DNA from: Takakia lepidozioides
Taxonomy: Eukaryota > Plantae > Bryophyta
Assembly: GCA_030704615.1 (NCBI GenBank)
Contig: CM060731.1
Coordinates: forward strand, 49,104,001-49,168,000
Length of the DNA stretch: 64,000 nucleotides
Direction of reading: 5' to 3'
The position numbers and the translations under genes are program-made. The notes beneath the pieces were generated by a model. That model worked only from the letters and a program-made list of their open reading frames with translations. It made no database searches and had not been told where the DNA came from. Positions 19,986 to 51,954 of this stretch are shown in pieces (the first letter of the stretch is position 1; each line of letters opens with the position of its first letter).

Positions 19986-20313
19986 GAAAAGGTGGCAAAT
20001 ATTTATGCACCAATATACCGTAATATAGGTATTTAGTCATCTCTGTAGTTATCAGGTCAACCAGGACTACACGTGTCGGTAGCATTTGTCGGTCTCTTCG
20101 CCGACACTCGGACGTTCTCTCTTCTTCCACTCCTGCATCTCTAACTTACATTATGTCTTCCTCGCTCGAGGAAGGATCCTTCGGGCGGACGCTTGGACTG
20201 CAAGCTCATGGATTCCCTTTCGTAACTCGTTTTTCACTTCGAATGTGCGGGAGTGTGGATTGACAGGAAGGCCATAGGCATTAGTGCTCTACCACACTGT
20301 CATTTCGGCAACG

Positions 20314-26300: not shown

Positions 26301-29300
26301 CATGCCCAGCAGCTCCAGCAGCTCAGTGCAGGAGTCCAAGCCAATGGGAGTACACTTCAGTCTGCAACTAATCCATTAGCATCACTACAGCAGAATGTCC
26401 CTCTCCAGCAGAGTGTTGGTGGGGCCTCTTTGCAAGCAACTGGTGTGCCTTCAAGTGGTTCAATTCCATCCAATGGTCCTACCTCCTTAGGGCAGAGTCA
26501 ACTGAGTGTGGTTAGTCCGTTTCTCTCTGTTTCTTGTGGTGAAATGCACAACCTAGTTGACTTACAGTCATAGTATGTCCTTCTGCTCTTGTGGTGGCAT
26601 TTGCGGCTTGGTTCACTTAGTTGATTACCATGTCCTGCCTTCTTCCCTGCCTCCTCAAAGCAGAATCGTATGCCAGTGGGCAGTCAAAACGTTCCAACTG
26701 TTTTTGTAGCTATAAGAGCTGGACTCTTGTATGCAACCAACTGCAAGTCGGTACACAATAGGATTGTCAGCTAAAGATGTATTAGGATCCCTTTGCGACT
26801 TCAAGTATGCAAGGATAGAAGTTTCACACAGCTAGACAGAAAAGAGGAGAAAAGAGGCGGACATCAGAAAGCACAACATTCTTTCCTTAGTCCAAAGGAA
26901 AGAGAGGAGTTAAAGATAAGGAGACCCGAGAGAAATGGTCACAAAGAGAATTCAAATTGGCCTAAATCAAGATGGAATGCCTGGTGAAGTTAAGCTACCA
27001 AACCACAGAGACACAAAAGTTGTTCCAACTTTCCTCCACCATCATGTGGTTTTCCCAGGTTCCTGCTCTCCTTCCTCCATCATGATGGATAACCAAGTCT
27101 GCAAGAAAGCATGGGAATGTCTACTGCATTATCAACCAGCTTGGAAGGTTTTGCTTCATGAACTATTGAACTAAGAACCACTGAACTAGAATCTTGCTCT
27201 CTAGCTCTATAGGATCCTTGCAGCAAAGATCGAACCAGTGGTCGCCTGCACTGGAGTGGCATTTTTTCAATCCAAAGATAGGGTCGCTAGTGTTGTCGCT
27301 TGGCACTCGCAGCCCCATTCGTGCTTGTTTGCTGGTGCCCTAACTCCAGTTGTTGATAATTTGCTGTTAATGTCAAACCAAAAGGTGTTCATGGTTTGCA
27401 GCAAGGTGGCGGAGTCAATTCCCTGCAGGGAAGTGGGGTTCACTCTTTGCAACCCAGTGGAATCAACCCACTTCAACAAAGTGGTGTGAATGCACTACAG
27501 CAAGGTGGTGTGAGTGCACTCCAGCAGAATGGAGTCAATGCTGCGCAACAGAATGGGGTCAATGCTCTCCAGCAAAGCGGAGCGAATCCAATGCTACAAA
27601 GTGGGCTCAATGTGCATCAACAAGGTGGGGTCGCTGGGTTGCAGCAAGGTGGTGTTAATCCCCTCCAAAATCAAGGTGGGAGCATCCAGCAGCAAATGCT
27701 GAAGCAGCAGCAGGAGCAGCACCAACAGCTTATGCAGGCACAGCAGGCCCAACAGCAACGCCTCTTCCAAAATCAAGAGCTTGTTAAACTGGTTGGTTTG
27801 GATGCCAATGCCTAAATGAGCAAGTATCATTGCCAATTTGAAATGTATAAACTTTGTAGACAGTTGACTATTCGACTGTTGCCGTTTGTTCTACCCAAGA
27901 AATTCGAGGAGTGAATCTGTTTGCTGTGTTGTTTTGCAAATGAATGTCCTGTCACATCATTTCCTTATGTATGTAGTACATAGTGGCCCTCATGAGCTTA
28001 AGCTGCTATGGAACAGCTACCAGCTTAATGTGAGCTTGTGAGTTGCCATTTCCTTTGTCTGCCTGTTGAAGACACAAAATTTTCTTTTGACGATTGGTGG
28101 GGGAACAGCAATTGCAGCAACAGCAAATACAGCAGCAGCAACTGTTGCAACAGCAGCAGCAGCGGCAGATGCAGCAGCAGCTTCAAAAGAATCAGGCTGC
28201 CGCCCAGCTCCAAACATTTCATGCTCAGCAACAGGTTAACCCTGAAACATGTAACTTTGAGAGTAAGCTCGCTTTGCTTAGCATTGCAGCTGTAGCCTAA
28301 ATTCTGTCATCTGCTTTCTCTTTTTTTGTTTGATCCCCACACTTTTAAGGAATTGTTCTCTTTTCTTCATCTGTTATATTGAGCTAAACATTACCTGTTG
28401 TAGCATGACTTGATAGCTTCTGCTACTTGGTTTTCAAAACTCTGTTATGATTTGCTTGAATTCTCTTCTTGTGAACCCTTAAGGGCCCAGGAGACCCATT
28501 TCGGGTTTTGAAGAAGTAGATTTTCCTGCGTACTTTTTGCAGTTCTTAATTTGTTTAATGGTTCCAACTACAATTCAACTTATGACAAGGTGGCCCACCC
28601 CCTAGTGCATTCTCTGACCTGTAGATTTGTTTGTAAACGTAGGGGTCATGAAATTTGTGCATGCAGGAGGGGCCATGCATAGTTGACTGTCTACGTGGCG
28701 AGGCATAAGTGGCCATTTGGCCCCACTCAGGGGCCCACATTGTAAATTCCACCCTTGGATCAGAATGTTTCCTACCAAGCTCATTATTGTAGTGCATTCC
28801 ACACCTTCACCGCCTGGATTTACTGAAACATCTCATTATGAAGGAATCAATGCTGGCATTGGCTCACATTGAATTGCCGAGTTATGGAGGTCATTTTGAC
28901 TCCACCTCAAACACATACAAGGATCCTAATTAGAAAAAAGATTGTTTGACTTGAAATTATCATGGCTAGAATACCATACCACATTTCTATGTGGGAGGCG
29001 GGAGCAGGAAAAATCAATCCGCCACTCTAACAGCTTGGTCAAAGCTCAATTTCATACTTTGCAAAACCCGAAAACGAAAACCTCCCCCGACTCAAACACT
29101 ATAGGTAGGTGTGTAGCCTCAGTTAACTGGCAAGAGGTTACTTCTTTGGGGGGTGAAATGTGCCTAATGGCGGGCCCTTAAGGGTTAATGAAGTTCTCAG
29201 TTTGTTTGATGAGCTGTCCCTAATACCGATGGTTAACAAGTGCAGCAGCAACAGCATCAACAACAGTTGTCAGACTTCAATTCAGACTTGAAGGTGGATG

Positions 29301-32056
29301 CTCTCAAGGCCAAGCAAGCCGCTGTTCAGAAGGTTACATGTTTCCCACATTCTGTCAATTTTCTGTAGAAATTATTTTTTGTTTGAAGTATAGGTGGCAT
29401 TGGGGTTTTAGTAGCAGCTTACACTTACGTTGTGTTCGACAAAGCCTCTCTGGACCTCTCACTCGTAGTCCTTTGCCCCTAATAATGAATTCTCAGCCTC
29501 TAACAATTAAATGCAGGATGAAAAGTTTTGTTTGCTTCACTTGCAGAACACAATCTGAGATAAGGAGGTACGTAGGTGTTTATTCTAGAGATTCACATTT
29601 GTTCTCAACAGCACCCTAGTTATCAACAGTCTCACACTGGGTTTTCCTCCATTGATCATGTGGGACAGGTCTTAATGCAGCAGCAGCAAATTAAACAGCG
29701 GCAGCTTTACCAGCAGCAGCTGCAGCAGCAACAGCTAAAAGTGGGTTCCCCACAGTTGGTATCCTCTCCCCAGTTGATGCAGGCCCCGTCGCCCCAAATT
29801 TCACAGCAGCTGTCTCCTCAGCCCGAACAAAGCTTCACAATGCAAATGCCAAAGGTTAGCACTCAGTTTTAATCACCTCATGCTGCCACAAATATTTTCC
29901 CATTTGGAAAATAGACTAGCAATTTTTTTCTTTCCTGCAAATACTATAGTGGGAGCATTTAAGTCCCTCCCCAGAATGCTCACCTTCTTGTCGAAGTGAA
30001 TGCAGACTGCGACACCCCCATTCCGAACACCCTCCCCTTCCACTCTTCCAGCAACCCCACCCCCGCAAGAGGAAGTCGACATGAAGGGTCCTACACCTTC
30101 CATGTCCTCTATAGCAACTCCAGGGACCATTCAAGCTCTGCAGGCGGCCATGACTGCATCAAGCAACACGCATTCTGGGGCTATCACTACTCCAGGAACT
30201 GCAGTGTCCCCACTGATGATTGACTTTTCACCAAGCCCTGCACAGATGGTAGCCACACAAGATGTGATGCAGGCATTTTCCCCAGGGACTCCTCTCCTGG
30301 ACAAATCCAACTCATCTGAACCGCCACTTGAGCGCTTGACGAGAAAGGTTGGCGTGCCTCTTTCTGTTCACTTGTGAATTCCTCTAATAAAATTTGTCGA
30401 TCCCCAGCCAATGCTGGGTTGTCTTGTGCCTTTCTACCACTTGGAAAAAGCTAGGCTGTTGTGGTAGAGCCAGAAGAGCATTCATTTTTTGAACCCATCA
30501 ACACCTAGTCAGAATGAAAGAAAGTTCATGCTCTTAATGGATGTATTTTGTGCTCTTGGAATTTGGTAGTAAAAATAGTATATGGATCAACTTGTCATAC
30601 GTCATGTCATGTGCACCAGGACTTTTAGTGGTGATTACTATTTATAGAGAAAAGCCATCTGACCTACAGGTGGAGAGTTACCTAACAAACCACATCATTT
30701 TCTATGCTGCAGATTGACTCTATGTCACCAAAAGCCCTTTGTGCAGCAGTTGGTGAAATGAATGCCGTGCTTAGTTGTTCTGACAAGCTGGCAGCGTCAG
30801 CTCCAGGTAGTGGATCACGGGCAGCAGTTGGTGAGGATTTGGCAGCCGTCACGAAGTCACGACTGCATGCACGGGCACTTGCCACCCAAGACAACAGCAA
30901 CACCAAAAAGAGGCGCCGTGTGGATTCCATAGCCCTCAACATTGTGTCCAGGGATGGGACAATCTCCAACACCCTTCAGAGGTCCTTTGATGCCGTGGAA
31001 ATGGGAACTGCCATGGTGTCCCATGTTAAGAGCCCTCGAATAAAGGTACCCTAATGTGACACTACTATGTCAGGGTCTCCTGCTGTAGGAAACACATGAT
31101 TATGCCTGTCCCTTCATGTCCAAATGAAGGAGCTCAGGAGGCCTTCAGCTTCCGGATGGTGGCCTATCTGTGGTTCCTGGGTATATGAGTGGCTGTATCA
31201 GGCTAAATGGTAGATGACATTGAGAGCTGCGAGTGTTCAATAGACTATCTTATTCCTTTTGAGGGCTAATGGTATTATCTTGGTTGAAGGTGGCTGCAAG
31301 TTTGGAAGAGGAAATAAGAGAGATCAACAGCCGCTTGATTGACACAGTTATTGAGGTTAGTGCGGAGGGCACTGAGGAAGCAGCAGCAGGAGGGAAGGAG
31401 GGAGTCGTGGTGACATGCTGTTACCAGGGGAATGCAATCAGTCCTAATGTATCATTCCTTCAGGCAAAAGAGTACTTCATGGTATGCCCAATCTGTGTTG
31501 GGGCTGGGTTGGTTGGCATGTATCTGTGTCTCCCTTGATCTCTTTGTGGAAAGACCTTCCAACCACTGCTCATAACTTACATTCGTACATGATGGCAGGT
31601 GCGAATGGCGCCACTCTTTTTGATAGTCCCGCCTAATTATCCTGACTGTTCACCAAATGTTTGGGGTGAACATACACCCCGTGACGCCAGGTACCTGTCA
31701 CGCAATGTCTTACAAGACTTGACCCATCTGTTGGAGTAGCTAAAAAATGTCTCAACCCAAGGATATTTGTAACATGGTGGAGCTTAATGTGATGTAATCC
31801 CCAGTTGAAATATTAACATGCTTTGTCTACAAATTGGTCGTTTATGCTGTACAGCCATCCTGTTGCCATAGCAACACGCGAGGAGTTTGCGCGGGCTGTG
31901 AGAATTTTACCAAGCCCAGTGTCCTTGGAATCCATTGCCAGATGTTGGGATGAGTGTGCACGCAATGCACTTACTGAGGTTGCAACATACCATGGAGGTG
32001 GCAATATAAGCACAAGCATCGGCGTATGGGAGTCATCTTGTGTGACTGTACCATAG
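20314..32056 (+). CDS. MED15: Mediator of RNA polymerase II transcription subunit 15a-like (KIX domain, Q-rich region, conserved C-terminal domain); ~21 exons
   Basis: Exons 20314-20375, 20800-20911, 21110-21224, 21510-21892, 22156-22269, 22624-22737, 22942-23080, 23571-23675, 23904-23971, 24354-24428, 25221-25556, then approximately 26205-26510, 27402-27791, 28109-28233, 29247-29333, 29611/29669-29853, 30007-30347, 30713-31045, 31290-31481, 31599-31691, 31855-32056. Motifs: KIX RFEEKIYQAATDQQDYLRKISLKML; GSRAAVGEDLAAVTKSRL; LEEEIREINSRLIDTVI; PVSLESIARCWDECAR...GGGNISTSIGVWE. Confidence 0.93.
28476..29184. mobile_element. piggyBac-like MITE in a MED15 intron (709 bp)
   Basis: 13-bp TIR CCCTTAAGGGCCC. 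Flanks are TGAA (left) and TTAA (right). Confidence 0.75.
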
Positions 32057-32884
32057 AAAGATGTCTTTGCTCATCCAGCTTGAGCCAAAGCTTTGAGGTC
32101 CCTCTATTCACGGGTGGCCTCCTGCTACAGTGCCTTTGGAGAGTTCTCTGTTGTGTATGTCTCTTACCCTATTGCCAGACTTGTCGAGCCATGCCAATGG
32201 CGCTTATGTAGTGAGGGTGATAAATTCACATTTCACAACCAACACTACCGATGGGTGTACAATATCCTTATCAACCAGACTTGTACCTACATCTGGTTTT
32301 GTGCAAAGTAAGACGAGGGAGGGTCATCCTGGCAGCATGCAAGCGCTCTCAATTGTTGCATGAGTTGTGCAGAGCATGCAACAGAGTCACTATTTTTGTT
32401 GTCTGAAGCTAACTATTACTTGTAGTTACAATCCCAGCTAAGACATTGATCCATTCCTATGATGCTTCAAGTGTTATACTATTTGATAGAGTACAAGCAG
32501 CTTGATCTTACAAAAAGCAAGTGATTTTATCATACTTATTTCTTCTTTCAAATAAATTGCACAGCGACAACCACTCGCATGGCAGCCTTGTTTCCTAACA
32601 TCATTGAGCACAACAAACATTAATCTTTTCCAAGTAACCTTGTCATGATCATGGAGGTCATATGTTTGATGTTTATTCTTGAGTGATATGGAAGCATGCT
32701 GGAGGTGCATCATTCTGAATTGTGCCGGTATCAACCAATTTGATGACGCCGAGCTGCAAATGTGACAGCGACGTGTGACTCTTTGTAGAATCGAGATCTG
32801 GAAAACTAACAATTTCTGTGTGGCCCTCTTATATGCATACTGTAAAACCTCACCTGTCACTCTTTCTCTTTGAGCACTTGAGCA

Positions 32885-33066
32885 GGTAGCCCAGTGGTTG
32901 GGTGTTTGTGCCTTGCCTGTGCATAACCTAGGTGATCCCGGGTTCAATCCTTCAACATGTGCCTTCAGACCGTCCATTGGGCCCTCGATGGCCTGTGTGT
33001 TGAGCAGTAGGCTCTGTAAATTCACTGGACGTTAAAGAATCTTTATCTTTATCTTATCTTATCTTT
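32885..33066 (+). mobile_element. tRNA-derived SINE with (TATCT)n tail
   Basis: A-box TAGCCCAGTGG, B-box GGTTCAATCC (32941-32950), 3' tail tctttatctttatcttatcttatcttt. Confidence 0.7.
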
Positions 33067-35522
33067 CACCTTGTGGTTCATGTAATCTCTCTTTTGGAAA
33101 TGGTGACAAATTCTTTTCTTGGTCAACCTGTAATGTAGTCCAATGACTCTTTGTATGTCTTTCCCCATTCAGCATGAATTCTTGGAAACTCGGAACTAAT
33201 TGATGCCGCAACTGATCATCGTTGCACAGAGGTAAATAACCAGACTCAATGCCCAGAATTACAAGCATCACATGTTCAATGGTAATAAGTGAAACCTTGA
33301 ACCAAATATTAATCTGCAATGTTATGTGCTGAAACAATGTTGTTTGTTATGTTTCCCACTGTCAGAATCTCTAGTTATGAAGTTATAGATTGACTTACCA
33401 AGATGTCGATGAGCATTCAATGCATTAGTAGCTAATGAAGCATTTCTTCACAATAGGCTTTCAATTTAGAGGGCCAAGTATCACTATGAGTTTGTGACTC
33501 ACTTTCTCCAACTAAAAAAATACCAAAGAAAAGAAACACCTCAAAACAAGTTAGTAGCTGTGAATATATTTGCTTCTTCATTCATCCAGCAGGATGGTAC
33601 TCTCTCTGTTATTTGTCTGTGGGGGGGTCGTCCCTCACCAGGTGGTGTGCTTGCTTTATGGCCCTGTGGGGTTTTATTTTTCCCCTCATCAGATAAAATA
33701 ATATTGGGGCTTCATCCCCTTCATCAAAAAAAAAAAACTATTGATAGATTAATCAACCTTATTGTATTTGGGGTCTCCATGTAATTAACAGGCGCATGAG
33801 TTAAAAGTAAGGCATTGGAGTAGAATCACATATTTTATTGCCTACACTAGTGTGGACTATCAATATTGAACTCACCTAAAGTGTGAGAGCGAAGGGGAGA
33901 GCTTGCCTGTACCAGCTTGAGCCTTGGAGCACTGCGTACAACAAAGAGGGGCATTTTTAGGGTTTCAAAGGAAATGAAAGGTAGCTGGAGCCCAGAAGGG
34001 CCCATGGGCATTGGGTGTCTATTTTGTAATTTTACTCTTAAGAACATAAATGTTTTCTCTTCTCATGTGCCTAATTCTAAAAAAATTATAGCATGAAGAT
34101 GCCTAATTTGAGAAATTGTTTTCAAATCGTGCCTAATTTTGTGATTGATTGATAATATTAGCGCAAAAATGCCTAAACGGTTGTCCAGGGACGGTATGTC
34201 AGTTCGAACTTGCAAGTAGCATCAGTAGTAATAAGTAGAAGTCCATGATCCATGCAACCAAACACTCCCTGGTAAGCCCATTTCTGACTTTTCCAGATAG
34301 AAAAAATTCCCAAATATTCTAAAGTACATGTGCAGAAAATATTCCAAAGTGAAACGTCAATGTTCTCGGCGTTGCAAAGCACCGTTGATCCATGCGATAA
34401 AAGGGAGAATGTACTGAGTAAAAAGAGGGAAAAAAGAAGAAAACAATGGTGTTCACACTTGAACGTTGACACTTGACACCTATACTACAGATTCATACTT
34501 ACGAGAACCAATTCCCAAATTCAATGCACATGAAGAATATTTTGGCAAATTCCTTGCATGCATGAAAACCAGATATGGCAAATGATCTTTAACAAGCCTG
34601 GTCCCTTTCTTTGAAAAAATAAAAGAGGTCTGCTGGAATCTCTGAGATCTCGCAAGAATCCGCGAGGTCCCGCTAGAATCTCCCGAAATTTTCTTTCATT
34701 CGGGTATGATGTTGATTTCAACGAGCCAACGATCTGGATCAAGATCACCAAGATCGATCTCTTCCCACGAGACAAGCCCTCTTCTTCTCTCGAGAGGATG
34801 TCTGGGGAGGACTATTTAAACACAAAGCAGACAAGTCATAAGCACATTGCAACAGTTCCTGGAGCTTGGTGCTTCTAGTTTTAAGTCACTTGTATCAACC
34901 CTCAATTGCGCTGTAGAGCTTAGATTCTTGCAACGGCCATTGACTCCTGCTGTTACTGATTTGTTCTTCCGTAGTGTACTGGTGATTGGAAAATTGCTCT
35001 GGATGGACGACTTCTTCTCTCCATGACTGTTTTCCGTGGCCTCTGCTTGGTGGTACTGTATCTAGACAGTCCTAATATAAGAGCTCCAGATGCAGCACAG
35101 CTTGCAGTGGAGATGGGTTTTGGGTTCTTGGTTTGATGGGGGTGCTGGCATAGACGTAGTCCAATAGTCCTGGCAATGATCTGATCAGCTACACGACGTT
35201 ATGTTGATTATTTTCCTGCCGGATGGATCAAGGGATGAGGCCTGTTGCTCATGAGCTTAGAATGAATCTGAGCTCTTACTCACCGTCCTGGGTTGTGAGG
35301 GAGGGTCTGGATGCAGGCTGCCAATCGGGTATTTATTTTCTCTCTTTTATTTATGCATTCTAGAGATTTTTCTATTTAAGCGCTACACTGCACTTGCGAA
35401 ATACTACAAGTTTGTTTTAAACCTCATAGTGGTGTTGGAAAACTAGGTGTTATTGAGCTCAATATTATAAAAATGCTGGAAATGAATAATGTCACATATC
35501 CTTTGTGCATACAGCACCACAT

Positions 35523-35944
35523 TGTAACAAGGTAGAATCTAGAAGGTTCTAGATAGAGGATGAAAGTTCCCTAGAAGTTTCCAGAATAACTAGGAAGGAT
35601 CCTAAGAAGTTTGACTTGAGGCTCTCAAGTCAAACTTCTAAGATATTTATATTATGGAGAGTAGGTCAAATCTTTGATAAAGTCATATTGTAGAGAATAC
35701 GTCAAACCTACGAAGGTTGACTTTAGCAAGTATTTTTAATAAAGTCGTATTGTGGAGAATATGTCAAACCTAGGAAGGTTGACTTTAGGAAGCTTTGACT
35801 TGAGGCTCTCAAGTCAAACCTTTAAAATAATCATTTTGTGAAGAGTATATAAACCTGCAATGAAAGCCTAGAAGACATCGAGTTGTTTTGGGAAAAAGTT
35901 GAGAAGTACTTCTATTCTAGTTAGTATAGATCCTGGGTGTTACA
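35523..35944 (+). repeat. Gypsy 5' LTR (422 bp)
   Basis: tgtaacaaggtag...gggtgttaca. About 13 substitutions and one 15-bp indel versus the 3' LTR by manual count. Confidence 0.95.
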
Positions 35945-36024
35945 ATGGTATCAGAGCCTAGTCTTTCTTAAAGTTGGGAGTGAATACCTTCTTTAGGAGG
36001 ATTCGATTAAGATGTTTCTTTTTA

Positions 36025-37055
36025 GCAGAGCCAACTGCAACAAAATTTCCATACCGGGAGTATGTTGGCAGTTGCATTTTGCTGCTCAAGGAACCCGAGT
36101 GGACCTCTCCTACTCTGTAAGTCATGCAGCCAAGTACTCTGAGTCTCCAAAGCTTTCCCATGTTGGTGGTGTCAAACGCATTCTAAAATATTTACGTGGA
36201 TTTCCGGCTTTGCGGATCACATACACTGCACAGTCTGCGTTTCAAAATCAGCTTGTGGCATATCGTGATGCCGATTATGCTGGTGACATGGATGACCGCA
36301 AAAGCAGATCTGGGTATGTTTTAATGCTCAATGGAGGCCCGGTGGCATGGGGCAGCCGCAAACAATCTTGCACAGCTACCAGCACCACTAAAGCCGAGTA
36401 CATAACTGCTCATCTTGCCACCCAGGAACTCATTTGGATGTGCCGCCTCTTGCATGATTTACGCTACACACAAACTAGCCCTACAGTTTTGTACAGCGAC
36501 AATCAAGCCGCAATTCGTTTGGTACGAAATCCAGAGTTCCATAAACGCACCAAACACATTGACGTGAAGTATCGAAAGATCATAGAAGTTGAAAAGAGTG
36601 GCGATATTCTTATCAAGTATGTTTCTACTGCTAACAATGTGGCTCATATCCTCACCAAAGCCCTCCCTCGTGACAAGTTCTGCCGCTTCAAGACTCTACT
36701 CGGTCTCACTTCCACCGTTGTTGCTGATAGTGTTGATAGTTCAACCTCATCCCGAGTGGGAGTGTTGTAAAAATATACCTATAGCGCATATACGGTATGA
36801 GGTTGGCAGTGTACCGACCTATAGTTGGGTAGCTTCTTGGCATAGCAAAGATAACGATGAGCTTAGCTGAGCTCGTGCTGAGAGTTCTGATTACTGTGCT
36901 TAGGTGGTGCAGTGGGTGTGAGAGAAAGTGAGCGATAGCAGTGTACACTTGGATTGTGAAGCTATGTGTATACTTTCACAATCAGTGTTAATACAATCTC
37001 TTTGCTATATCGTTGTGCATAATTCTTGGAGTCAATTCACTGCACTACTTCAACA
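36025..37055 (+). mobile_element. 3' part of Copia: RT C-terminus, RNase H, PPT and 3' LTR (36763-37055)
   Basis: FPYREYVGS, TRVDLSYSVS, YRDADYAGDMDDRKSRSGY, WGSRKQSCTATSTTKAEY, DNQAAI, HKRTKHIDVKY. LTR TGTTG..CAACA is followed by AGAAC. Confidence 0.92.
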
Positions 37056-38119
37056 AGAACCGAGAGTCAACCTATTGGAGGTTGCTATACAGGAAGCCAC
37101 CAGTCACTAAAATGCATGGTGAGTGTCACCTAATATGTGAACAAGTGGAATAAAGGGACCTGATGTGACATCGATATCTGCTCCACCCACGCCGATAGTA
37201 ACAGTTGCCTCTATGAACTTCTCTGCACCCTTCACCACCTTGTCTTTCCCTCTTGCAGCCACTTTGATCTTACCTGCCATACCTGGCCCAACCCCATCAT
37301 AGCAAACAACTACTCATGCTGGCTCTGGCTCTCAAACCACTAGTGAGACACGCTACTAGTGCATGTGCCAGCATGTTGAAGACACAAGTTACAAGCAACT
37401 AGTCAGTTGCTTCTCACCGGACCGACATATTAGTAGAAGTATCTAGAAATTGGAAAGTAACTAGAACTAGAACTATCAGCTAGAACTATCTAGAAAGCCC
37501 ACGCTAGAAAGTCAATCCTGGACTCATTTCATTAATTAATACAGGTGGCCTTCCTACATTGGCCCCCTCTTTTAACTCTTGGACCACAGTATCTCCTGGA
37601 CCACTCTAGAATCAGCGCCGAATGAAACTGCTCTATATATTATCACTGCAACTTTGTGATATTAATTTGAGGGGGTCAAGTGATATACCATATAGCAATC
37701 TCAACGATCTTCCCTTATTCTGCATACCTTGGTGCACTTGATTGAACGTCATGAGCAGGAAATATAGCAAACTTCGGACAACATATTGTTCAAGTAGTAG
37801 TCATCAAGCAGTATGTCGAAAAATCCCTGCAGTATCCTATGAGATGCATTTCTTCAGAACTGCTCTCGTTTAGGATTTTAGCCTCATTATAGCATACATG
37901 ATCTGTGTGCATGATGTGAAGTATGGATATCCGCTAATAACTCTAACGTGTGGACTACATGTGAGTCAAGCTTCTGTCAACTGATACTTAGCCAGAGATC
38001 AGGAAGCTTGATATTACTATTAGCCAAATTATCTGCTAATTAAGTATCTGCAAAACTCGACCTGCAAGCCTTGTATGGAATATCCAGTATGTTGTGCAAA
38101 CTCTGTTTAAGAGACTTTT

Positions 38120-39080
38120 AATACCCACACCTGGGTTGATGGAAAACAGACCACAAGAATTCTCAAGGATGTTGTCCATGTGCCCAACCTTGGCAGAAAC
38201 TTATTCTCTACCTCTGGAGGAGCCCAGAAAGGAATTGATACCCTACATACCAAAGGAGGATGTTGTCTTATGGCTGACGGAGAAGTCGTGATGAATGAAG
38301 TGGAAGAGTATGGAATCTATAGACTGTCAATGACGGTGGTATCATCGTTGGAGTCCTCAGGAAACACCGCATTCTCCGCCAGTATAATTGGTGTACAGAG
38401 CAAAAAGGGCTGCACTCAGAGCTTGGACGTTTGGCACAAAAGACTTGGTCATGTCCATCATGGAATGATCAAGCATATGGAGAATAGAGACATGGTTGAT
38501 GGATTGTTTATTTTAGGGCGAATGGAGGATCAACCCTTTTGCGTGGGTTGTGCTTATGGAAAAAGCCACAGAGAGCCTTTTCCTTGGAATGAACACAAGG
38601 AGAAGATCACAGAGATTGGAGATTTAGTGCATTGTGATCTGTGTGGCCCAATCAATGTGATCAGCATTGGTGGCGCAAGATATTTCGCATTATTTAAGGA
38701 TGATCACAGCGGGTTTAGGGTCATTTTTACATCACACATAAAACAGCCACACTGGATTGTCTACGTCGTTTCTATGGACAAATGCAACGTGAGACAGGCA
38801 TGACCATCAAGATCCTCCGATCAGATAAAGAAACAAAATTTTGCAATGGAAAATTTGAAGAGTTCATGAGCCAGAAAGATATCAAGCATGAGCTCACTTG
38901 TGTTTACTCCCTTTGAGCAGAATGGGGTGGCGGAAAGAGACAACCGTACTATTATTGAGTCTGTGCGCAACATGATACACGCTAGCAATATTCACACATG
39001 GTTTTGGGGGGAGGCTGCGCACACTGCAGTGTATTTGCTCAATCGAACCGGAAGCCGTTTGCTGGACAACGTCACACCAT
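38120..39080 (+). mobile_element. Copia protease end, GAG-pre-integrase and integrase core fragment
   Basis: THTWVDGKQTTRILKDVVHVPNLGRNLFS, WHKRLGH, CVGCAYGK, LVHCDLCGP, TPFEQNGVAERDNRTIIESVR, FWGEAAHTAVYLLNR. Confidence 0.9.
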
Positions 39081-39234
39081 CATGAGTTCAAACGTCCCTT
39101 TTGTATTACCAATAGTCACGTACGGGATGGTTTGGGATTGCACTATTTATATACTGTATTATGATAAGAGAATAGAGATAGTATACATTAATTTTAGAAG
39201 ACAACCATCACGAAAGAAGGAGTAGTGGAGCAAG

Positions 39235-42200
39235 ATGGCGGACAATGAAGAAATTGTGGACAACGCACACACTACTCATCAAGCCAATTATCAGACGGTG
39301 TGGATAATAGAGCGCTTACACGAATTGCAGAATACTCTCGTCACAATTCAACAACAAAACAACGTGTTGATGGAGGAGCTTAAACAAGTGAGACAATCAA
39401 TTGCCCTGGGACTAGTTGTTGATGGGTCGGATACGTTGCTGCAAAAGATGACCAAGACATGCAAGGTCGAGCCGTATAAAGAAAGTCGCGCAATGAGAGT
39501 GCTAGAAGGATGGATTTATCGAATGGAGGTACATCTGTCATATTTTCCTACATCAAATGATTTGAACCACGGAATGTTTATACGATCTTTTCTACTCGAC
39601 AATGCTTCAACATGGTTACAGACATGGGAGAGAAGATAGATTGCAAAATGAGAACTTTTACTATGGAGCACCTTGAAAGTGGGACTGCTCCAATAATTCA
39701 AGGCAGTAGATGTTGTTACAACTGCTCGAATGAAATTATGGAATTTGGAACAACGCGGGAGTGTGCAAAATTACATTGAAGATTTTTTGAATCTTCAGGT
39801 TCAAATCGAAGACATGAGTCCTGCAGAAGTTTTAGACAACTTCAAAAGAGGATTGAAGAAGAAAATTCAATGAGAGGTAATTTTACGCAACCCGGTTGAT
39901 GTCCACGATGCAATTTCATTGGCCCAAAAGATTGAAGGGACGCTACCAAAATACGACGAAGGTATAAACGTTCCATTGAACCAATACGGACCAACGCCTA
40001 TGGAGCTTGGAAATCTTCGAAGACGGGATAACTTCCAATACTCTCAAAGAAATAGGCCGGGAATCAGATATGGAGAAGATAACACACAGCGGTGAATGAA
40101 ATTGAATGACAAGGATGTGACCTCCTCAACATTCTCACGAACAGAAGGACAAAGGGAAAGTCGACAATGTTACAACTGTGGAAAATACGGACATCTTGCA
40201 GCCAACTGCCGAAGTGGAAGGTACAATCGACAAACTTATCAAAAACCTCTTAACAGTTTAAGGAGAGGAGAAGATAACGAACATCACAATGAGCAGGAAA
40301 ACGAGGACAATCAGTAAGTAGACCTCGCGGTCTTACTGGTTCTACAAAGAAGAGGAGAGGAGAGGCGAGGGGCCCTACAAGGAGAAGAGACAAATCAATC
40401 ATGCGGGCAAGAAAGAGACGCAGTTAATTGTGGCAGATGGAACCTTGTAAGGTATTCATGTGAAAGTGTTAATAGACCCTGGGGCAACAGAAAACTTCTT
40501 ATCTAGAAAGACTGCCTTGAAACTAGGACTCCCCTTAGAAAAAGATGAAAGAGAGGAAGTAGAAATGTCAAATGGACATACATAAGCCATTGAGACACTA
40601 CCTAAAAACATAAAGTTGTCGATTGGTAAATATAGAGAAACCTTAGAATGATGAGTGGTCAGACTGGCTCGATATGACGTAATATTAGGCATGTCTTGGA
40701 TGGAATCTCACAACCCTGAGGTTGATTGGCGTAGAAAGATAGTCAAAACCCAGAATTGAAAAATATTGGGAGATCGAGTGAGGACACCATATCGAAACCT
40801 ACCATCATTTGTTATAGGTACTACAGCTATATGTAAGAAAGACTTATTATTTGTAGATTTAATAAGAGACGTGGAAAATCCGAAAAAAGACATGAGTGAG
40901 GTCCCTATAGAATTACAGAGTATATTGAAAGAGTTCAAAGATGTCTTTCTAGATGACCTACCAGCACGACTTCTGCCAAAGATAAGAGTAGATCATAAGA
41001 TTGAGGTTGTTCCAAGTAGTGCTCCTTCTTGTAAAGTCCTTTATTGATTAGCACCAAACGAGTTGGAAGAATGTAAGGCTCAAATCGAGGACCTACTATC
41101 AAAAGGCTTTATAAGACCAAGTGTATCCCCGTATAGAGCGCCGGTGTTGTTTGTGAAGAAAAAAGATAGAGCAATGCGCATGTGCATTGATTATCGAGCA
41201 CTCAACCAGCAGACAGTGAAAAACAAGTACCCGTTACCACGCATGGACGATTTATTTGACCAACTGCGAGGAGCAAAATACTTTACGAAGCTTAATCTGA
41301 GGAGTGGATACAACCAAATTCGAGTCGCTGATGAAGATGTATATAAGACGGCTTTTCGCACTAGGTATGGACATTTTGAATACATGGTTATGCCATTTGG
41401 TCTCACCGATGCCCCAGCCACATTCATGGGCCTCATGAATGATATCTTTCGTCCATTAGATTTGTGATAGTCTTTTTAGATGATATTCTGATCTATAGTA
41501 ACAGCCTTGTCGAGCATACAAACCACCTCAAACAAGTATTACAAGTTCTCCGTGAGAATCAGCTATATGCCAAAGCATCTAAATGTGAGTTTGGAAAACA
41601 AGAAGTAGATTATCTTGGGCATCGCGTGAGTAGGAAGGGAATTGAGGTAATGAGTGAGAAAATAGAAGCTATTCAGCAGTGGATAGCCCCTGAAGACATT
41701 ACCCAATTAAGGAGTTTTCTTGGCCTTACCGGATTCTACAGACGATTTGTACGGAAATTCTCAAAGATTGCCCAACCATTGATAAATCTTTTGGGCAAAG
41801 AAATTAAATAGAAGTGGGGTACAGAAGAGGAGTTAGCATTTCAGGCCTTGAAGGATGCGTTGCTTCATGCCCCGATCTTGAAATGGTATGATCCGACAAG
41901 ACTAATCAAGCTCTCGGTAAATGCGTCAGGCTCAGCAATGGGTGGGATATTACAACAAGAATGGGAAGACGGATGGCACCCAGTGGCATATTTTTCTCGT
42001 AAATTGTTACCCGCGGAAGAAAATTATCATACAACCGAACGAGAAGAATTGGCTATTGTTTTCACTACAAAACATTGGAAGCACTATCTTGGAGACAAAG
42101 AGTTCATAGTGGAGACAGACCATAAACCGTTGGTGTACTTGGAGACACAAAAAGATCTATCGAAGAGACAGATTCGTTGGGCGGAGTGACGACAACAATT

Positions 42201-43755
42201 TAATATGAAGATCGTCTATGTGGAGGGAAAACGACAATTGGCAGATGCAATGACAAGGATGCCACGCATAAACACATTGACAGAAATCAACATTCAACCC
42301 GATTGGTGGAACAAGATAGCGACGATTTCTAAAGATGATGGGGAGATCGTGGACGCTAAAAAGAAGGGCAAAGTGACAGAAGTTCGAGGGTTGGTATTCA
42401 AGGAAGGTAAACTTTGGATCCCTGATGAACCTGCATTGAAGACAGAAGTCTTGTTTGAAGCTCATGATACGGCGATAGCATGACATGTTGGAGTTGAAAA
42501 AACATTCGAACAACTAAAACGAACATTTTAATGGCCGCGGATGCGAGACGAGGTGGAAACGTACGTTCGAAGTTGCATGAGATGTCAACAAAACAAGTCA
42601 ACAAACCGCAAGCCAGTAGGTCTTTTACAACCACTACCAGTACCAAACAGACGTTGGGAACATATGAGCATGGATTTGGTTTGTGAGTTACCTCAAACCT
42701 CATCGGGATACGACATTATAGTGGTCTTTGTAGACAAATTGAGTAAGATGATATATATCCGTCACACTAGAAAATCCGTCACTGCACCTGAACTAGCTCG
42801 ACTATATCTGGAAGCGGTCTATTCTCATCATGGGTTATCTAAAGTTCTCATTACTGACAGGGGTACCCAATTTACTAGCTTGTTTTGGAAAAACTTATTT
42901 GGTCTTTTTAAAACCAAATTAGCTATGTCAACAGCCTATCATCCGGAGTCAGATGGACATACAGAGCAAGTAAATCGTACAATTGAAGACATGTTGCGGG
43001 CCTTTACGTTAGAAGAACAAGAAAAGTGAGATTGGTTATTACCATTGGTAGAATTTTCATACAATAACTCGGTCAACGCGTCAACGAAAGAAACTCATTT
43101 CTTTTTTATGTATGGTGAACACCCAAATGTGCCAACAACTCTTACGAAGTTCAATTTATCAAAAGATGAGTTATCCAAGGTAGCCGCGACTAACGCATTT
43201 GTACAACAAATTCGACGGGGAGTACGTCAAGCTAAAGAGAAGCTGATGATTGCCCAAAATCGCCAAAAGCAGTATGCAAATGCACGTCGACGGGATGAGG
43301 AGTTTGCAGTTGGGGATCAAGTGTGGTTGTCTACAACTAATTTACACATCATTGGATCGCGAAAACTAGGGGCACGGTTCATTGGTTTTTTTTCGATCAT
43401 TAAACGCATTGGAGCAGTAGCATACAAGCTGGAGTTACCACCACATATGAAGATCCACCCGGTGTTTCACGTTTCTCTACTACGTTGTTACGAACCTCGA
43501 CCGTCAATATTCAAAGATAATCAAGAACCACAACCTTTACCAGAGTTGATAGACGGAAATGAAGATTGGGAGGTCGACCGTGTTCTGAAAAAACGCACAT
43601 ACAAACGAGGGCGACATGAGGTGTTGGAGTATTTGGTTTTATGGAAAGGATTTCCATTATATGAAGCTACCTGGGAACCGGTGCAAAATCTTGCAAATGC
43701 TCAATTGATAATTCAAGCTTTTGAAAATTCGAACAACGAGGACGTTGTTTTTTAA
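39235..43755 (+). pseudogene. Gypsy gag-pol (gag, CCHC, PR, RT, RNase H, integrase, chromodomain) with many premature stops
   Basis: CYNCGKYGHLAANC; LIDPGATENF; [10 protein letters not shown]...[12 protein letters not shown]; [11 protein letters not shown]; YFSRKL; CMRCQQNK; TDRGTQFTS; HPVFHVSLL; EDWEVDRVL...EYLVLWKGFPLYEATWEP. Confidence 0.93.
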
Positions 43756-43768
43756 GAGATGGGATGAT

Positions 43769-44205
43769 TGTAACAAGGTAGAATCTAGAAGGTTCTAGAT
43801 AGAGGAGGAAAGTTCCCTAGAAGTTTCCAGAATAACTAGGAAAGATCCTAAGAAGTTTGACTTAAGGAAGTTTGACTTGAGGCTCTCAAGTCAAACTTCT
43901 AAGATATTTATATTATGGAGAGTAGGTCAAATCTTTGATAAAGTCATATTGTAGAGAATATGTCAAACCTATGAAGGTTCACTTTAGCAAGTATTTTTGA
44001 TAAAGTCGTATTGTGGAGAATATGTCAAACCTAGGAAGGTTGACTTTAGGAAGCTTTGACTTGAGGCTCTCAAGTCAAACCTTTAAAATAATCATATTGT
44101 GAAGGGTATATAAACCTGCAATGAAAGCCTAGAAGACATCGAGTTGTTTTGGGAAAAAGTTGATAAGTACTTTTATTCTAGTTTGTGTAGATCATGGGTG
44201 TTACA
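43769..44205 (+). repeat. Gypsy 3' LTR (437 bp)
   Basis: Direct repeat of 35523-35944. Confidence 0.95.
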
Positions 44206-45728
44206 CACACCTCTGATCCTTTCCACCGCTTGCTTCTCTTCTGAGATATCGCTGTAAGTTGAAAACCAACTTCGATTCTGACACATGTGCTGTGAGCAGC
44301 AATTGTCCATGTACCAATGCTGTGAGCAGCTTTGTACATTCCCTGCCCCAATGTCGAGTGGCTCGACAGTTCCAACATTCTGTTGTTTTCTTTTGCTCTG
44401 CTATTTCTTTTTCTGCGTTGTTCACGTTGCTCCAGCGTGAGCGGTGGTTTTCCTGACTGTGAACCACTTTTTCCTTTGAACGATGCTGCATATGCGGTTA
44501 CACTTGCACTTTTGCCATTAGCTCTGCTTTCTTGGTCCCGCATTCTTGATTCTTCTCTGATCAGCCTCCCAGTCATGATACTTATCGTTCGCTCAATTGC
44601 AGGGACATTTTCCCATGATGATTGAAACGATCCATATGCTGCTGGCAGCTGACTTAAAATCTTGGCCATGACTGTGTTGTCAGTGAATATATTATCTCCA
44701 AGATTTGTGAGCTCACATCGCGCCTCCTCGATCTTACCCAAGAAATCTGCAATACTATCATCTTCATCCATGGTAATATCAAAGAAACGCTGTTGAACAT
44801 GGTGAATGCTTTCATGCGAATGCTGATCGTGTACCTCACTCAATTTATCCCAGATCGCCTTGGAGATCTTGCATCCCATGATATATTTGGATACCTTCTC
44901 CTCCACGGCTTGGCACAAAAGAATAACTGTCTGATTATCTTTCTTGATCCATACATCTAAACCCTCGGCATCATTGGAAGGTCTCATTGTGGTGCTATCT
45001 ACTACGTCCATCAGCTCTTTTCCAAGAAAGAGAGCTCGCATCTGAAACTGCCACATATGGAAATTTTGTCCTGAGAACCTCCTAATATTGCCCAGATCTT
45101 GAAGATCAGCCATGCTTGCTACGTTTGACGACAAATGAAACAAAGAAAAGGAACAACTGACGACGTACACTTTGAACTTAAAACCCAAAAGACATAACCC
45201 AAGTGCTACCACTGTTGCAAAGTTACTCACAAGAGCTCTATACTGGGGACAAGAAACCCTGTCTTGTGTACTGCAAGTGCGACGACATGACTTCACTGTA
45301 TTTAAGCTCAACAGCTTAATTGACACAGATACTCTAGACACAATATCTAACGTAACATAAATGAGAGAGAAACTAAAACAATGCAATACCGCTTTTAGAC
45401 CAGTGCACTTATCCCGGAAGAGATTCGTGGGCCCATAACCTGTTGAAGTAGTGCAGTGAATTGACTCCAAGAATTATGCACAACGATATAACAAAGAGAT
45501 TGTATTAACACTGATTGTGAAAGTATACACATAGCTTCACAATCCAAGTGTACACTGCTATCGCTCACTTTCTCTCACACCCACTGCATCACCTAAGCAC
45601 AGTAATCAAAACTCTCAGCACGAGCTAAGCTCATCGTTATCTTTGTTATGCCAAGAAGCTACCCTACTACAGGTCGGCACACTACCAACCTTATACCGTA
45701 TATGCGCTATAGGTATATTTCTACAACA
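44206..45728 (-). mobile_element. 5' part of Copia: 5' LTR (45441-45728), half-tRNA PBS, gag, zinc knuckle, protease
   Basis: The LTR is the reverse complement of 36763-37055 (~10 substitutions, one 5-bp indel). PBS GGTTATGGGCCC. gag from ATG 45113 MADLQDLGNIRRFSGQNFHMWQFQMRALF; CWNCRATRHWGREC; protease WYMDNCCSQHM. Outer flank on the element strand is AGAAC. Confidence 0.92.
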
Positions 45729-48489
45729 GTTCTCATTTCTGCAACTCTTGCGTTACCCACTTTTCAAACTTTCAATACTTTATTAATAAAGTTTGACACT
45801 CAACCATCCAACAATTAAAAGAAATCTCTATTCATATATGAATATGAACTATTGATTGCATATCCAGGCTATCATGATGCTCAATGTTTGATTTATGTAT
45901 GATGATGATTTTCACTCTAGAAATCTTACTCGAACTGTAACATTTCTGGGAACTCGAACCTGTGATAGGTTTGGCGGGGCGTTGAAGCGTTCATCTCGGT
46001 TCAACAACTGTCTGGCGAGAAGAATTGGGTTGTCATGTGATGAAGCAGGAGGTGGCAGGCTCTATGTGATCATGGCCACATGTGAATAGGATGTGATATA
46101 GAAAAGATTAGGGATTCTCTCCTTCTCTTTTCACCTCTCTCCCTAGTGTGAAAAGTTGTAGATACGAACTTTGAACAGGGATAGAGAAAAGGCATCGAGA
46201 AAGTGCCGCAAGATTGAAGAACGGAACTGGAACGGGGGAGAATCGTGCATGGTGTGGAGGCTGGGAGCACTGGATATATTCCAGTACCATGTGTCATCGT
46301 TGTGAATTCATACTGAACCTGTCAAGGGAGTTTTACATTGCTGGAGCTCGAGAGGATGCTTGGCGTGAGGTGCTATAGTGTAACTGTGCATGGCTAGAAT
46401 GAAGAAAGGTATTGTGAGCACTAAGTGTGTGACAGGAACGTGGCAAGAGCCACTGTGGGTTCTACTTGGCACCGTGTGATAATCTGCCCAAAGTCCATGA
46501 GCTTTTGCATTGTTGTTTGGGCCAAGGGTTAACATGTGCAGAGAAGAGAAAGAAACCGATCGTCAAAGCCTTACAGGTCAAAAATAGAATACTCCAACGA
46601 AGAAGAAGAAGAAAAAGAAATTCAAATAGACCTGAACTGTGAAGGGCAATTTGAGCATGTAGGAACAGAACAGAGGAACTTAAGACGAACGATCATATGT
46701 ATAGCTTACATTTCCAACTATTGGGCCTAGAGAGGTTATCGAGAGGTTATCTACCTGCGTCTAGAACCAGGTGTGGAGTATAATTGTAGTATGGGGTCTT
46801 GTCGAAGTTAAAATGTATGTACAAGTAACTATATAGTTTGGTCAAGACCTTCCCACCTCTTGACTGGTTTCAATCTGCAAAAACCACTGATTTGGTGGCG
46901 AATCAAAATTCTCATAGCGTCTGGGAGATTGCAGCTCAGTGCCAAGCACTGCCTGAGCTTACTTTACATGAGATCTTCTTTCCAACTCTCACACCCACGA
47001 CAGATTTTCTACATAGTCAACTTTCCAGGCCGACATGGTACCCTGCTCTACAACGGCAACATGAGCCTTCTCGTATCCAATAAGGCCACCGGCGCCACAA
47101 TGTGATCACCCACTGAGGATCTAGCTTAGCATGTAGTTTGTTTAATGTATGAATCGCTACTATTTCGCTTCCTTGGCAATGATCTCTCTCAACATCCAGT
47201 CAAACAGTGCTCCTGAAGATTAGTTTGATACCCTATTATGTTCCGAGGAACAAGTATCACAATCCACGGAGGCAGCTTGAGATCGCTCCATGCTGATTGA
47301 GCTACTTCGTAGACTCTCGAAGTTCAAATTTGAAGTTACGACTACGACTACATACCGCTTGAAAGGTAGATCTTATCTTTTGACTTAGTTGAAATGTATT
47401 TCCAACTAACTAACGTGCAGTGTTCGATGATCAGCGTTTGAAGCAAGCCGTCTTAAGAAAATACTGTTTATTCCGTGCGTGGATTACAGCAGCTTCCTCA
47501 TTGGACTATGCAGCATCCATCGGTTCGTAGTTACCTTGTCTTTTAGGAAAACAGCGCTATGATAGTTCACAGAGTTATAATGAATACCAACACAAGAGTC
47601 AAGGTAAAGAGTACTTTATTGTGAAGCACACAGTATATACCACGGCCCTCTCACGATTCTACACTATGTGCTATGTCTGTGCACGTATTCCAGCCGTGTG
47701 GGCTTCATCAGCAGTTCAAACGCGGGTTGGCCAGCGGTCCACCCTGGATGGACTAGATTGGTATACCTAGTCATGTAGTCGAGTTGGTAACCCTTATTCT
47801 GGACTACTCCAGTAGTGAAGTGATTAGTGACTAAAGGCGAGCAGTAACTCCACACTGTCTTGCTGCTGCTATTCTTGTAATATAGCATATGACGATCAGG
47901 ACGTGGAGCTAGAGCCATGCGTGTCAGAATAGCATAGCTGGGAGAAAGAACATAGACTAGTTACATAGCGTTACAATTCTGGATCTAGAGCTTAAAGGTG
48001 GAGTTACATTTCGGAGCGCTTATCATTTTGAAGCACTTACTCTACATGGCTCTAGTATCTACGACTCCTCGGAACAAGAGGTATCTAGAGATAATTGATA
48101 ATTCATACTGATCAAACATTGAGTCTTCAACTCAAACAGTCTCTGCACTGATTCCGGATTAGTTCAGGGTTCCCACGATAATTCGACTGCTGAATCGATT
48201 CAACAATCCTGTGGATGCAGCTCAGACCCTCTAACCACATTTTAAGACATTTTAGGACTGTATATATATATGCAGCCTAGGCCTCCTTTACTACGCTGAC
48301 ATCCTGTTTCTTTTAGTCACTCCCTTTTCAAGAGCTAATCTACCTCCGGCCCCAACGTGCCTAGAACACTTTGTCAGCCCAATTAAGTTGCAATAAAAAT
48401 AAATTCATTTGAACTTCACCAGTTGCATGTTTCCAACTGTTATCTGCCAAAGCAACCTGCCTTTTGGCAGGGCTCTTCCTGAAGGCTGG

Positions 48490-48720
48490 CCTGGTCAGTG
48501 GGGGCCTGGAAAGATTCTTTCTTGAAAGCGTAGGGGAGTGAGCAACTGCTCTCACCAGCACGTGCAGCTGTAGGTGTCCATTCTGAACAAACAGGAAATC
48601 AAACCATGAATTCTTCGCAAAACAACCGGTCACAGAAACCAAAGCGTATCATCTGAAGACCTGCAAACAGACCATCTCTGCCCCTACCACGAACACTGTA
48701 TACTCAGTAATCCCACTTTT
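48490..48720 (-). pseudogene. Inverted degenerate MED15 intron 1 / KIX exon 2 fragment
   Basis: Reverse complement gaattcatggtttgatttcctgtttgttcagaatggacacctacagctgcac...aatctttccaggcccccactgaccagg aligns to ~20770-20912 with indels. Confidence 0.75.
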
Positions 48721-49491: not shown

Positions 49492-49773
49492 CAGCTCCTC
49501 CTCTCATTCCCATCACTCACCGATCGAACTCCGGATTGGGTGTCTCAAAGATATTGAATTCCACATACTCTACCAGCTACCAGCTTCTCCAGTTTGAGTG
49601 TTTACTTATGTACACAGGTTCAACACTACTAGAATCATTTGTACAGTGAATCTCACGGTCTGCAGCTCCATCCATTGAAGAGTTGAGCCCTTCTGTGTAA
49701 TCCGTAGATCACACCATCCCTCTGTTTCTCTCTCACTCGCCCGGACGTTTCTACCGAGCTATTAACTGCAACA

Positions 49774-51954
49774 ATGGTGATTGCCAACGGAACTCAGGTG
49801 AGCGTCAACGGCAATGGCATCAAAGCTGAGCACGAGGCTAATTTGGAGTCTTTTTGCAGAAAGGTCCAGCTTCCTGACCCTCTGAACTGGGGGCGAGCAG
49901 CCTCAGCCCTGCAAGGCAATCATCTGGACGAGGTTAAAAATATGGTGAAAACATTCTACGACGCGACCGAAGTAGCCATTGAAGGGGTGACCTTGACGGT
50001 CGCTCAAGTGGCAGCCGTGGCCCGCCGACCAGAGGTGAGAGTGGTGCTGGATGCTGCCAATGCCAAGAATCGAGTGGATGAAAGCTCCAATTGGGTTCTC
50101 CAAAAGATCATGAACGGTGGGGATATCTATGGCGTCACAACTGGTTTCGGAGCCACCTCTCACCGGCGTACACAGCAAGGAGTGGAGCTCCAGAGAGAGC
50201 TCATTAGATTTCTGAATGCGGGAGTTTTGGGCAAGGGCAACACCCTCCCAGCGTGCACCACGCGGGCAGCCATGCTTGTGCGCACCAACACGTTAATGCA
50301 GGGATTCTCTGGCATTCGTTGGGAGATCTTGGAAGCCATGGAAAAACTTTTGAATGCAAATGTCACACCCAAGTTGCCACTGCGAGGGACCGTCACTGCT
50401 TCTGGAGACCTTGTTCCCTTATCTTACATCGCGGGACTACTTACTGCCAGGCCCAACTCCAGAGCTGTCACTGAGGACGGACAGGAAGTGTCAGCCTTGG
50501 AAGCTCTGAGACTCGCTGGGGTCGAGAAACCCTTTGAATTGCAGCCCAAGGAAGGCCTGGCCATTGTCAATGGAACAGCGGTGGGGTCAGCCTTAGCGTC
50601 CACTGTCTGCTTTGACGCCAATGTGATGGTCTTATTGGCTGAGGTTCTTTCAGCCCTGTTCTGCGAGGTGATGCAAGGAAAGCCTGAGTTTGCTGACCCC
50701 TTAACGCACAAACTGAAGCACCACCCAGGCCAGATGGAAGCGGCTGCTATCATGGAGTGGGTGCTCGATGGAAGCTCATACATGAAGGCAGCAGCAAAAC
50801 TGCATGAAACCGATCCTTTGAAGAAACCCAAGCAGGATCGATATGCGCTACGTACTTCCCCACAATGGCTGGGGCCACAGGTCGAGGCGATTCGCAATGC
50901 CACACATGCCATTCAAAGAGAAATCAACTCTGTCAACGACAACCCAATCATTGATGCTGCCGGGGACAGGGCCCTTCATGGCGGGAATTTCCAGGGAACC
51001 CCCATTGGAGTCTCGATGGACAACATGCGGTTGGCCGTTGCTGCGATTGGGAAGCTCATGTTTGCACAGTTCTCTGAGCTGGTAAACGACTACTACAACA
51101 ATGGGCTTCCTTCAAATTTGAGTGGAGGACCTAACCCAAGTCTGGACTACGGAATGAAGGGCGGGGAGATCGCCATGGCTTCATACCTCTCGGAGTTGAA
51201 CTACTTAGCCAACCCAGTGACCACCCATGTGCAAAGCGCTGAGCAGCACAACCAGGATGTCAACTCACTAGGTTTAGTGTCTGCAAGAAAGACCGAGGAA
51301 TCTATTGAGATTCTGAAGCTTATGAGCTCCACTTTCTTGGTGGGCCTCTGCCAGGCCGTGGACCTTCGCCACATCGAGGAGACAATGCAGACGACAGTGA
51401 AGCAAATTGTTTCCCAGGTCGCCAAGAAGACGCTCTTCACAGGCAGTAACGGCGAACTTTTGCCATCACGGTTTTGCGAGAAGGACCTTCTCAGCCTGGT
51501 GGATCGCCAGCCTGTATTCAGCTACATCGATGATGCCAGCAGTGAAACTTACCCCCTGATGCAGAAACTAAGGGAAGTCTTGGTGAGTCATGCGCTCCAA
51601 AACCCCAAGAATGAAAAATCGGAGACTACATCAGTGTTCCACAGGATCGCAATATTTGAAGAGGAGTTGAAGACGCGCCTGAACATTGCTGTACCTTTGG
51701 TCCGGGAGTCGTACGATAACAAGGGGTATTCGGCAGTGCCAAACCGGATTGAAGACTGCAGGACATACCCTCTCTACAGATTTGTGAGGTCTGAATTAGG
51801 GACCCAGTTGCTGTCAGGCTTGAGGACTGTGTCTCCTGGTCAAGAGATTGAGAAGGTTTACAATGCCATCTCCGAAGGCAAACTTGTGGGTCCTCTTCTC
51901 AAATGCGTTGACGGTTGGACCGGGAGACCCGGCCCTTTTGCCCAGTGCTGTTAA
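49774..51954 (+). CDS. PAL: Phenylalanine ammonia-lyase, intronless, 726 aa
   Basis: [23 protein letters not shown] motif [64 protein letters not shown] has Phe at the substrate switch, indicating Phe specificity. Confidence 0.98.

Follow-up and report, generated by a model that had tools for sequence, protein, structure and literature searches.

A permuted and partly inverted nest of Copia and Gypsy retrotransposons in the moss Takakia lepidozioides, and the exchanges that could have produced it

Two nested elements and a third repeat

A stretch of 64,000 nucleotides from the moss Takakia lepidozioides (GenBank assembly GCA_030704615.1, contig CM060731.1; hereafter the window, whose own coordinates are used throughout) holds a Copia retrotransposon broken into pieces that no longer stand in their native order, together with a Gypsy chromovirus that lies within the Copia protease (Table 1). 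The two Copia long terminal repeats (LTRs) face in opposite directions, agree at 278 of 288 aligned bases with one 5-nt indel (Kimura two-parameter divergence, K2P, 0.036 +/- 0.012) and are both bordered by the target-site duplication (TSD) AGAAC. Next to the 5' LTR, GGTTATGGGCCC at 45440-45429 resembles what we take to be a primer-binding site (PBS). Other copies of the host repeat, visible in contig loose ends, carry AGAAC only once and thus represent an empty site, and in copies of the repeat that runs from 37061 onward the loose ends before 37056 are the reverse complement of 45734-45758. Because of this empty site, both LTRs can be assigned to one insertion into this third repeat, flank B, which was carried along with the 3' end of the element, is its true 3' flank, and two independent Copia insertions are ruled out. 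All contig evidence comes from runs X1-X4 (run X5, with a share of 0.09, was left out), which are of a single sample that is possibly the window's own source, and it checks the assembly, not other genotypes. Information on sister copies is drawn only from the loose ends of these contigs, and depth in the contig tables is not to be equated with copy number.

The coding pieces of Copia were located by tblastn with six intact relatives, which are 6 of the 38 matches of the search for relatives. The region from gag to the protease start lies at 45.1-44.2 kb on the minus strand, the protease end and the integrase at 38120/38150-39079 on the plus strand, and the end of the reverse transcriptase (RT) with RNase H (RH) at 36066-36713, again on the plus strand, where three of the six relatives gave a match. 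Between the integrase and the RT end ~520-650 residues, or 1.6-2.0 kb, are missing, and with the corresponding part of pol of three relatives as query no match turned up anywhere in the window. A short protease stub left of Gypsy resembles the loose ends of sister copies, with 4 of 28 letters differing in a by-eye comparison. Two LTRs, a TSD and pieces of gag, protease, integrase (IN), RT and RH that match intact relatives place the element in Ty1/copia, its RT core being missing. Set against the native domain order, as read from the sequences of the relatives, the pieces are permuted, the distal ones now lying inverted within the Gypsy 5' leader, and the middle of pol is gone. A preliminary description of this locus had proposed exactly this, as well as a single split Copia with near-identical, opposite-facing LTRs that share AGAAC, and on all these points it holds.

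The insertion point of Gypsy is the Copia protease. Its LTRs are identical at 409 of 422 positions (K2P 0.032 +/- 0.009), and these LTRs, the 5-bp TSD, the RT-RH-IN order and a C-terminal chromodomain (Chromo, E 9e-15) identify it as a Ty3/gypsy chromovirus. Its internal region bears stops and frameshifts. The nesting described earlier holds, and it is nesting that gives the order of the two insertions, which the LTR divergences quoted above do not resolve. Both elements have further copies in the genome. Other Gypsy copies, again seen as contig loose ends, depart from the window after 36023 and rejoin it at 39080. Since their two loose strings of 30 letters each do not overlap, the deficit in the Gypsy leader is no less than 60 nt. 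The preliminary description had recognized the loss in Copia pol but overlooked this one. A Gypsy that already carried the insert before it moved is ruled out, both because the other copies listed have leader letters of their own between 36023 and 39080 and because the insert contains the flank of the present locus. Each Gypsy LTR contains a near-perfect palindrome of ~40 bp (35602-35642 and 43867-43899), beside which the 3' LTR has 15 extra bases; as a source of the breaks the palindrome at 35602-35642 was discarded, since no breakpoint falls inside it.

Table 1. Coordinates of the features at the rearranged locus
Feature	Position	Strand	Remarks
Copia 5' LTR	45441..45728	-	288 bp, TG...CA
Copia TSD AGAAC, 5' copy	45729..45733	-	
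Copia gag, zinc knuckle and protease start, frameshifted	44211..45113	-	Pfam Retrotran_gag_2, E 1e-23; tblastn
Copia protease stub left of Gypsy	35485..35517	-	translation
Fragment E: Copia protease end, gag-pre-integrase and integrase core, inverted	38125..39079	+	955 bp; tblastn
Copia RT end, RNase H and polypurine tract (PPT)	36026..36762	+	tblastn, 56-65% identity
Copia 3' LTR	36763..37055	+	293 bp, inverted relative to 5' LTR
Copia TSD AGAAC, 3' copy	37056..37060	+	
Flank B, carried with the Copia 3' end	37061..38124	+	
Fragment X: RT end/RNase H/PPT, 3' LTR and flank B	36026-38124	+	2099 bp
Other half of third repeat, beyond Copia 5' LTR	45734..45812	+	right end approximate
Gypsy 5' LTR	35523..35944	+	422 bp; TSD CACAT at 35518-35522
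Gypsy PBS-like site and first 80 bp of leader	35945..36025	+	
Fragment G: protease stub, Gypsy 5' LTR and leader start	35485-36025		541 bp
Gypsy internal region H: leader remainder, gag, zf-CCHC, RT, RNase H, integrase, SH3, chromodomain	39080..43768	+	
Gypsy 3' LTR	43769..44205	+	437 bp; TSD CACAC at 44206-44210

As judged by contig depth, flank B consists of the multi-copy third repeat (~37061-37689, ~630 bp) followed by single-copy DNA (~37690-38124, ~435 bp). The flank of ~1 kb first described is present, but most of it is repeat. On its minus strand, near 37558, the third repeat has a purine-rich, PPT-like tract and an LTR-like start TGTAGG, features of sequence which suggest that a truncated LTR element may have its 3' LTR here. 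Nothing was found that would tie flank B to flank A, the sequence to the left of the rearrangement: a six-frame Pfam search for a feature spanning the two gave no match in the 12 frames of A and B (right of Copia, there was one chance match in 6 frames), word-7 blastn found no link between them, and their GC contents (0.38 vs 0.43) are uninformative as to whether they were once adjacent.

Four junctions and the ancestral order

The present arrangement has four novel junctions, J1 at about 35484|35485, J2 at 36025|36026, J3 at 38124|38125 and J4 at 39079|39080, one of each orientation class. The positions first given for J2 and J4 (~36025 and ~39082) have thus been refined, while those for J1 and J3 (~35487 and ~38120) have moved to about 35485 and 38125. 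Two of the four are spanned without a single difference in 4/4 runs, J1 by contigs covering 34168/71-35550 and J3 by contigs covering 37606/37680-38154, although in the latter the Copia side amounts to no more than 30-34 letters, according to the register chosen, against a tool rule of 31. J2 and J4 are left unspanned among the pieces listed. Both are abrupt: Gypsy copies depart at 36023-36025 and a Copia contig begins at 36026, while at the other end Copia homology stops at 39079 and other Gypsy copies join at 39080. The Copia contig in question, which covers 36062, has its start at 36026 in three runs (from_end 37 in each) and one letter further on, at 36027, in the fourth (from_end 36), the values being calibrated on a contig that starts at 38150; we infer that two paths would merge at this point, which gives J2 indirect support. 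Holes in the exact-match cover by the listed pieces near J2, near J4 and at 38188-38548 were discounted as evidence since contigs lose rare variants. No duplication or TSD was seen at J2 or J4, and comparison of the window with itself revealed no repeats at the breakpoints. At the protease break both sides were reused, with 0-2 nt lost.

The preliminary description also ascribed the protease break to a TTA microhomology. The letters do exist, at 35489-35487 (-) and 38118-38120 (+), but their role as the crossover is doubtful because sister copies place the split at about 35485|38125. In run X1 two sister Copia contigs meet the window at 38125, and their letters ahead of this point resemble the stub to about 35485. 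Between GTGAC and CCACACC the sister copies have 8 letters, which is the length that a TTA join would give, yet they differ from it at 4 of these 8, a mismatch with a binomial P of 9e-5 at 3.5% divergence or 0.018 at the local 14%. Sharing from 38125 agrees with the end of the J3 contigs at 38154, given a word length of 31. Simulations moreover put the chance of a shared 3-mer between 9% (one register) and 26% (three in-frame registers). On these letters, TTA is probably not the crossover.

With the pieces named as in Table 1, and with D standing for the lost piece between X and E, the ancestral order is deduced to have been A X D E G H, while the present order is A G -X -E H. Only one minimal reversal path connects the two, and it takes exactly two steps, an inversion of E+G followed by one of X+(-G). 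A single inversion is thus insufficient, as the preliminary description had argued, but its further step to excision and re-insertion of a DNA circle does not follow: two overlapping inversions and the inverted insertion of an excised X-D-E circle yield the identical order and the same four junctions, the reciprocal pair included. The two models are in fact the same two reciprocal exchanges taken in opposite order. Were X closed onto E first, a transient circle would arise, and were the other pair exchanged first, an inversion would, and the sequence keeps no record of which came first. How special the observed order is can be gauged by enumeration. Three fragments have 48 signed orders, 25 of which show four new junctions, and among these 25 there are 4 of the two-inversion type and 3 that correspond to a moved, permuted circle, i.e. 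5 distinct orders, the observed one belonging to both sets.

Explanations for the rearrangement

The likelihoods attached to the following explanations are our own judgement, and a very small share is reserved for explanations that are not listed here. End-joining repair of clustered breaks in one local episode appears to be the most likely explanation, a preference that we hold tentatively. A single Copia insertion and the later entry of Gypsy would have been followed by cuts in four zones within ~6 kb, whose rejoining by end-joining, the repair pathway we infer, would have kept three fragments (two of them inverted) and lost two. Such an event would be later than the arrival of Gypsy, because J2 and J4 sit in the Gypsy leader. 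In favour of one episode, all breaks fall within ~6 kb of ancestral sequence, the fragments measure 541, 2099 and 955 bp, and both inner breaks carry deletions. The reuse of both sides of the protease break, the abruptness of J2 and J4 with neither duplication nor TSD, the presence of one junction of each orientation class and the plant precedents cited below point the same way. Locality is what favours a single end-joining episode: with 541 bp between the insertion and the scar, it counts both against a free circle and against unrelated inversions. Several observations nevertheless pull the other way. deletions occur at J2 and J4 while J1 and J3 are nearly clean, a hint of two events; the order statistics favour paired exchange ~fivefold over random rejoining (without deciding between circle and inversions); the bridging contigs for J2 and J4 are absent among the pieces listed; and the plant multi-break cases cited below are radiation-induced.

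Two separate overlapping inversions are possible but less probable. The first would have inverted E+G (~1.5 kb, with sequence lost at either end) and the second X together with the inverted G (~2.6 kb, with nearly clean ends), which would explain the contrast between the clean J1/J3 and the deleted J2/J4, follow the unique two-step minimal path to the same four junctions and account for an order of a type to which only 4 of the 25 four-junction orders belong. However, two independent rare events would have had to hit overlapping stretches within 5 kb in the little time that has passed since Gypsy arrived (LTR K2P 0.032), no inverted repeats lie at the breakpoints, and no intermediate allele was seen in the one sample.

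The circle of the preliminary description, of ~4.7-5 kb, would have been excised as X-D-E, opened in D and put inverted into the Gypsy leader, an explanation that we consider unlikely. X and E do share an orientation (both plus) and their order is circularly permuted, the reciprocal junctions J1 and J3 each lie inside contigs, and the observed order is 1 of the 3 moved permuted-circle orders; there is also a precedent in rice, where circles that leave chromosomal deletions behind have been reported (PMC10948907). The outcome is nevertheless indistinguishable from that of two inversions, and a target 541 bp from its own scar is one that a free circle would almost never find, while a circle that remained tethered amounts to the one-episode model. 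In addition, the TTA microhomology is doubtful in view of the 4 of 8 differing letters, no copy of a circle donor was found when the window was compared with itself, and published cases (PMC7188851) depend on a donor that is retained and a recipient that is far away. It is improbable that a ~5 kb circle left heritably and without duplication and re-entered beside its own scar, with both the scar and the closing junction preserved. Should a deletion-only allele be found, the locus would count among the rare cases in which the excision of a circle and its re-insertion have been recorded naturally in a plant. Finally, a partial misassembly, in which J1 and J3 are genuine and the X-E block has been put wrongly into the Gypsy leader, could draw on the unbridged state of J2 and J4 among the contigs listed and on the fact that both join multi-copy to multi-copy sequence, but it is very improbable, since both are abrupt novel joins with no common repeat to mislead an assembler, the Copia contig begins exactly at 36026 in three of four runs and at 36027 in the fourth, and, given real J1 and J3, the X-E block has to re-enter the chromosome somewhere.

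Surroundings and comparison with known systems

The moss origin of the window fits its phenylalanine ammonia-lyase (PAL) gene at 49708-51954, which is encoded by a single open reading frame and whose nearest named relatives are Sphagnum proteins (86-87% identity). A glutamine-rich multi-exon gene occupies 21500-32000, and its 3' exons are reminiscent of the Mediator subunit MED15a. A segmental duplication links 9193-12539 with 19797-25300 (82-99% identity, spacings of ~10.5 and 12.7 kb), and an inverted, more diverged remnant of it lies upstream of PAL at 48479-48661. Degenerate CCCTAAA-rich, telomere-like repeats in units of ~240-400 bp are found at 3300-4550, and a further reverse transcriptase fragment (RVT_1, E 6e-20) at 56128-56646 (-). 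Left of the rearrangement, 33622-34369 is a multi-copy repeat of high contig depth, and 32874-33055 is a ~180 bp repeat with a bin mean contig depth of 102,110 as compared with ~60 for single-copy DNA in run X1. The latter has motifs, at 32887 and 32941, that we take to be A-box-like and B-box-like, and together with a TTATC tail they make it look like a tRNA-derived short interspersed nuclear element; it had no Rfam match and no second copy in the window. One contig links it to 37253, which suggests that another member of the third repeat has taken up a copy of it.

As a structural scar the locus is of a known type: it is neutral, lies in dead retrotransposons and touches no gene in the stretch. 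LTR retrotransposons usually decay by deletion or by formation of solo LTRs. As in other nested and decayed elements of this class, LTRs, TSDs and domain orders are normal and stops and frameshifts have accumulated, whereas the inversion and reordering go beyond such decay. A literature search found nothing on this particular locus, which does not prove that nothing exists. What the locus offers is a worked example of how an ancestral order can be read, with no outgroup, from nested elements, their TSDs and sister copies.

Parallels come from plants with multiple breaks. In irradiated Populus the junctions formed when multiple breaks are rejoined include perfect ones, ones with microhomology and ones with insertions (PMC8423247), and a five-break case with pieces of 1.7 kb and 232 bp is known from Arabidopsis uvh3-2 (PMC5710597). 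In both, the breaks are clustered, pieces are kept or lost in mixed orientations, and joins are blunt or show short microhomology, all of which resembles what is seen here. Unlike those radiation-induced, chromosome-scale cases, however, the present one is a natural scar of four junctions within ~6 kb. It shares with chromothripsis fragments that are kept once or lost, in mixed orientations and with no duplication in the self-comparison, but its 4 junctions fall below the >=10 clustered rearrangements given as a criterion in the same Populus study (PMC8423247).

Insertions of extrachromosomal circular DNA are the other obvious comparison. Takahashi and Innan (2020; PMC7188851) took permuted duplicates that stand at independent sites as the sign of a circle, and they attached a caveat to cases on the same chromosome. 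As in their insertions, the block here is circularly permuted with its parts in the same orientation. There, however, the donor is kept and the recipient site is independent, which makes multi-step alternatives unlikely; here, where the donor is lost, the recipient lies 0.54 kb away and two inversions suffice, giving a non-circle path that is equally short, this argument is inapplicable. Local circular permutation combined with inversion is, taken alone, not evidence of extrachromosomal circular DNA.

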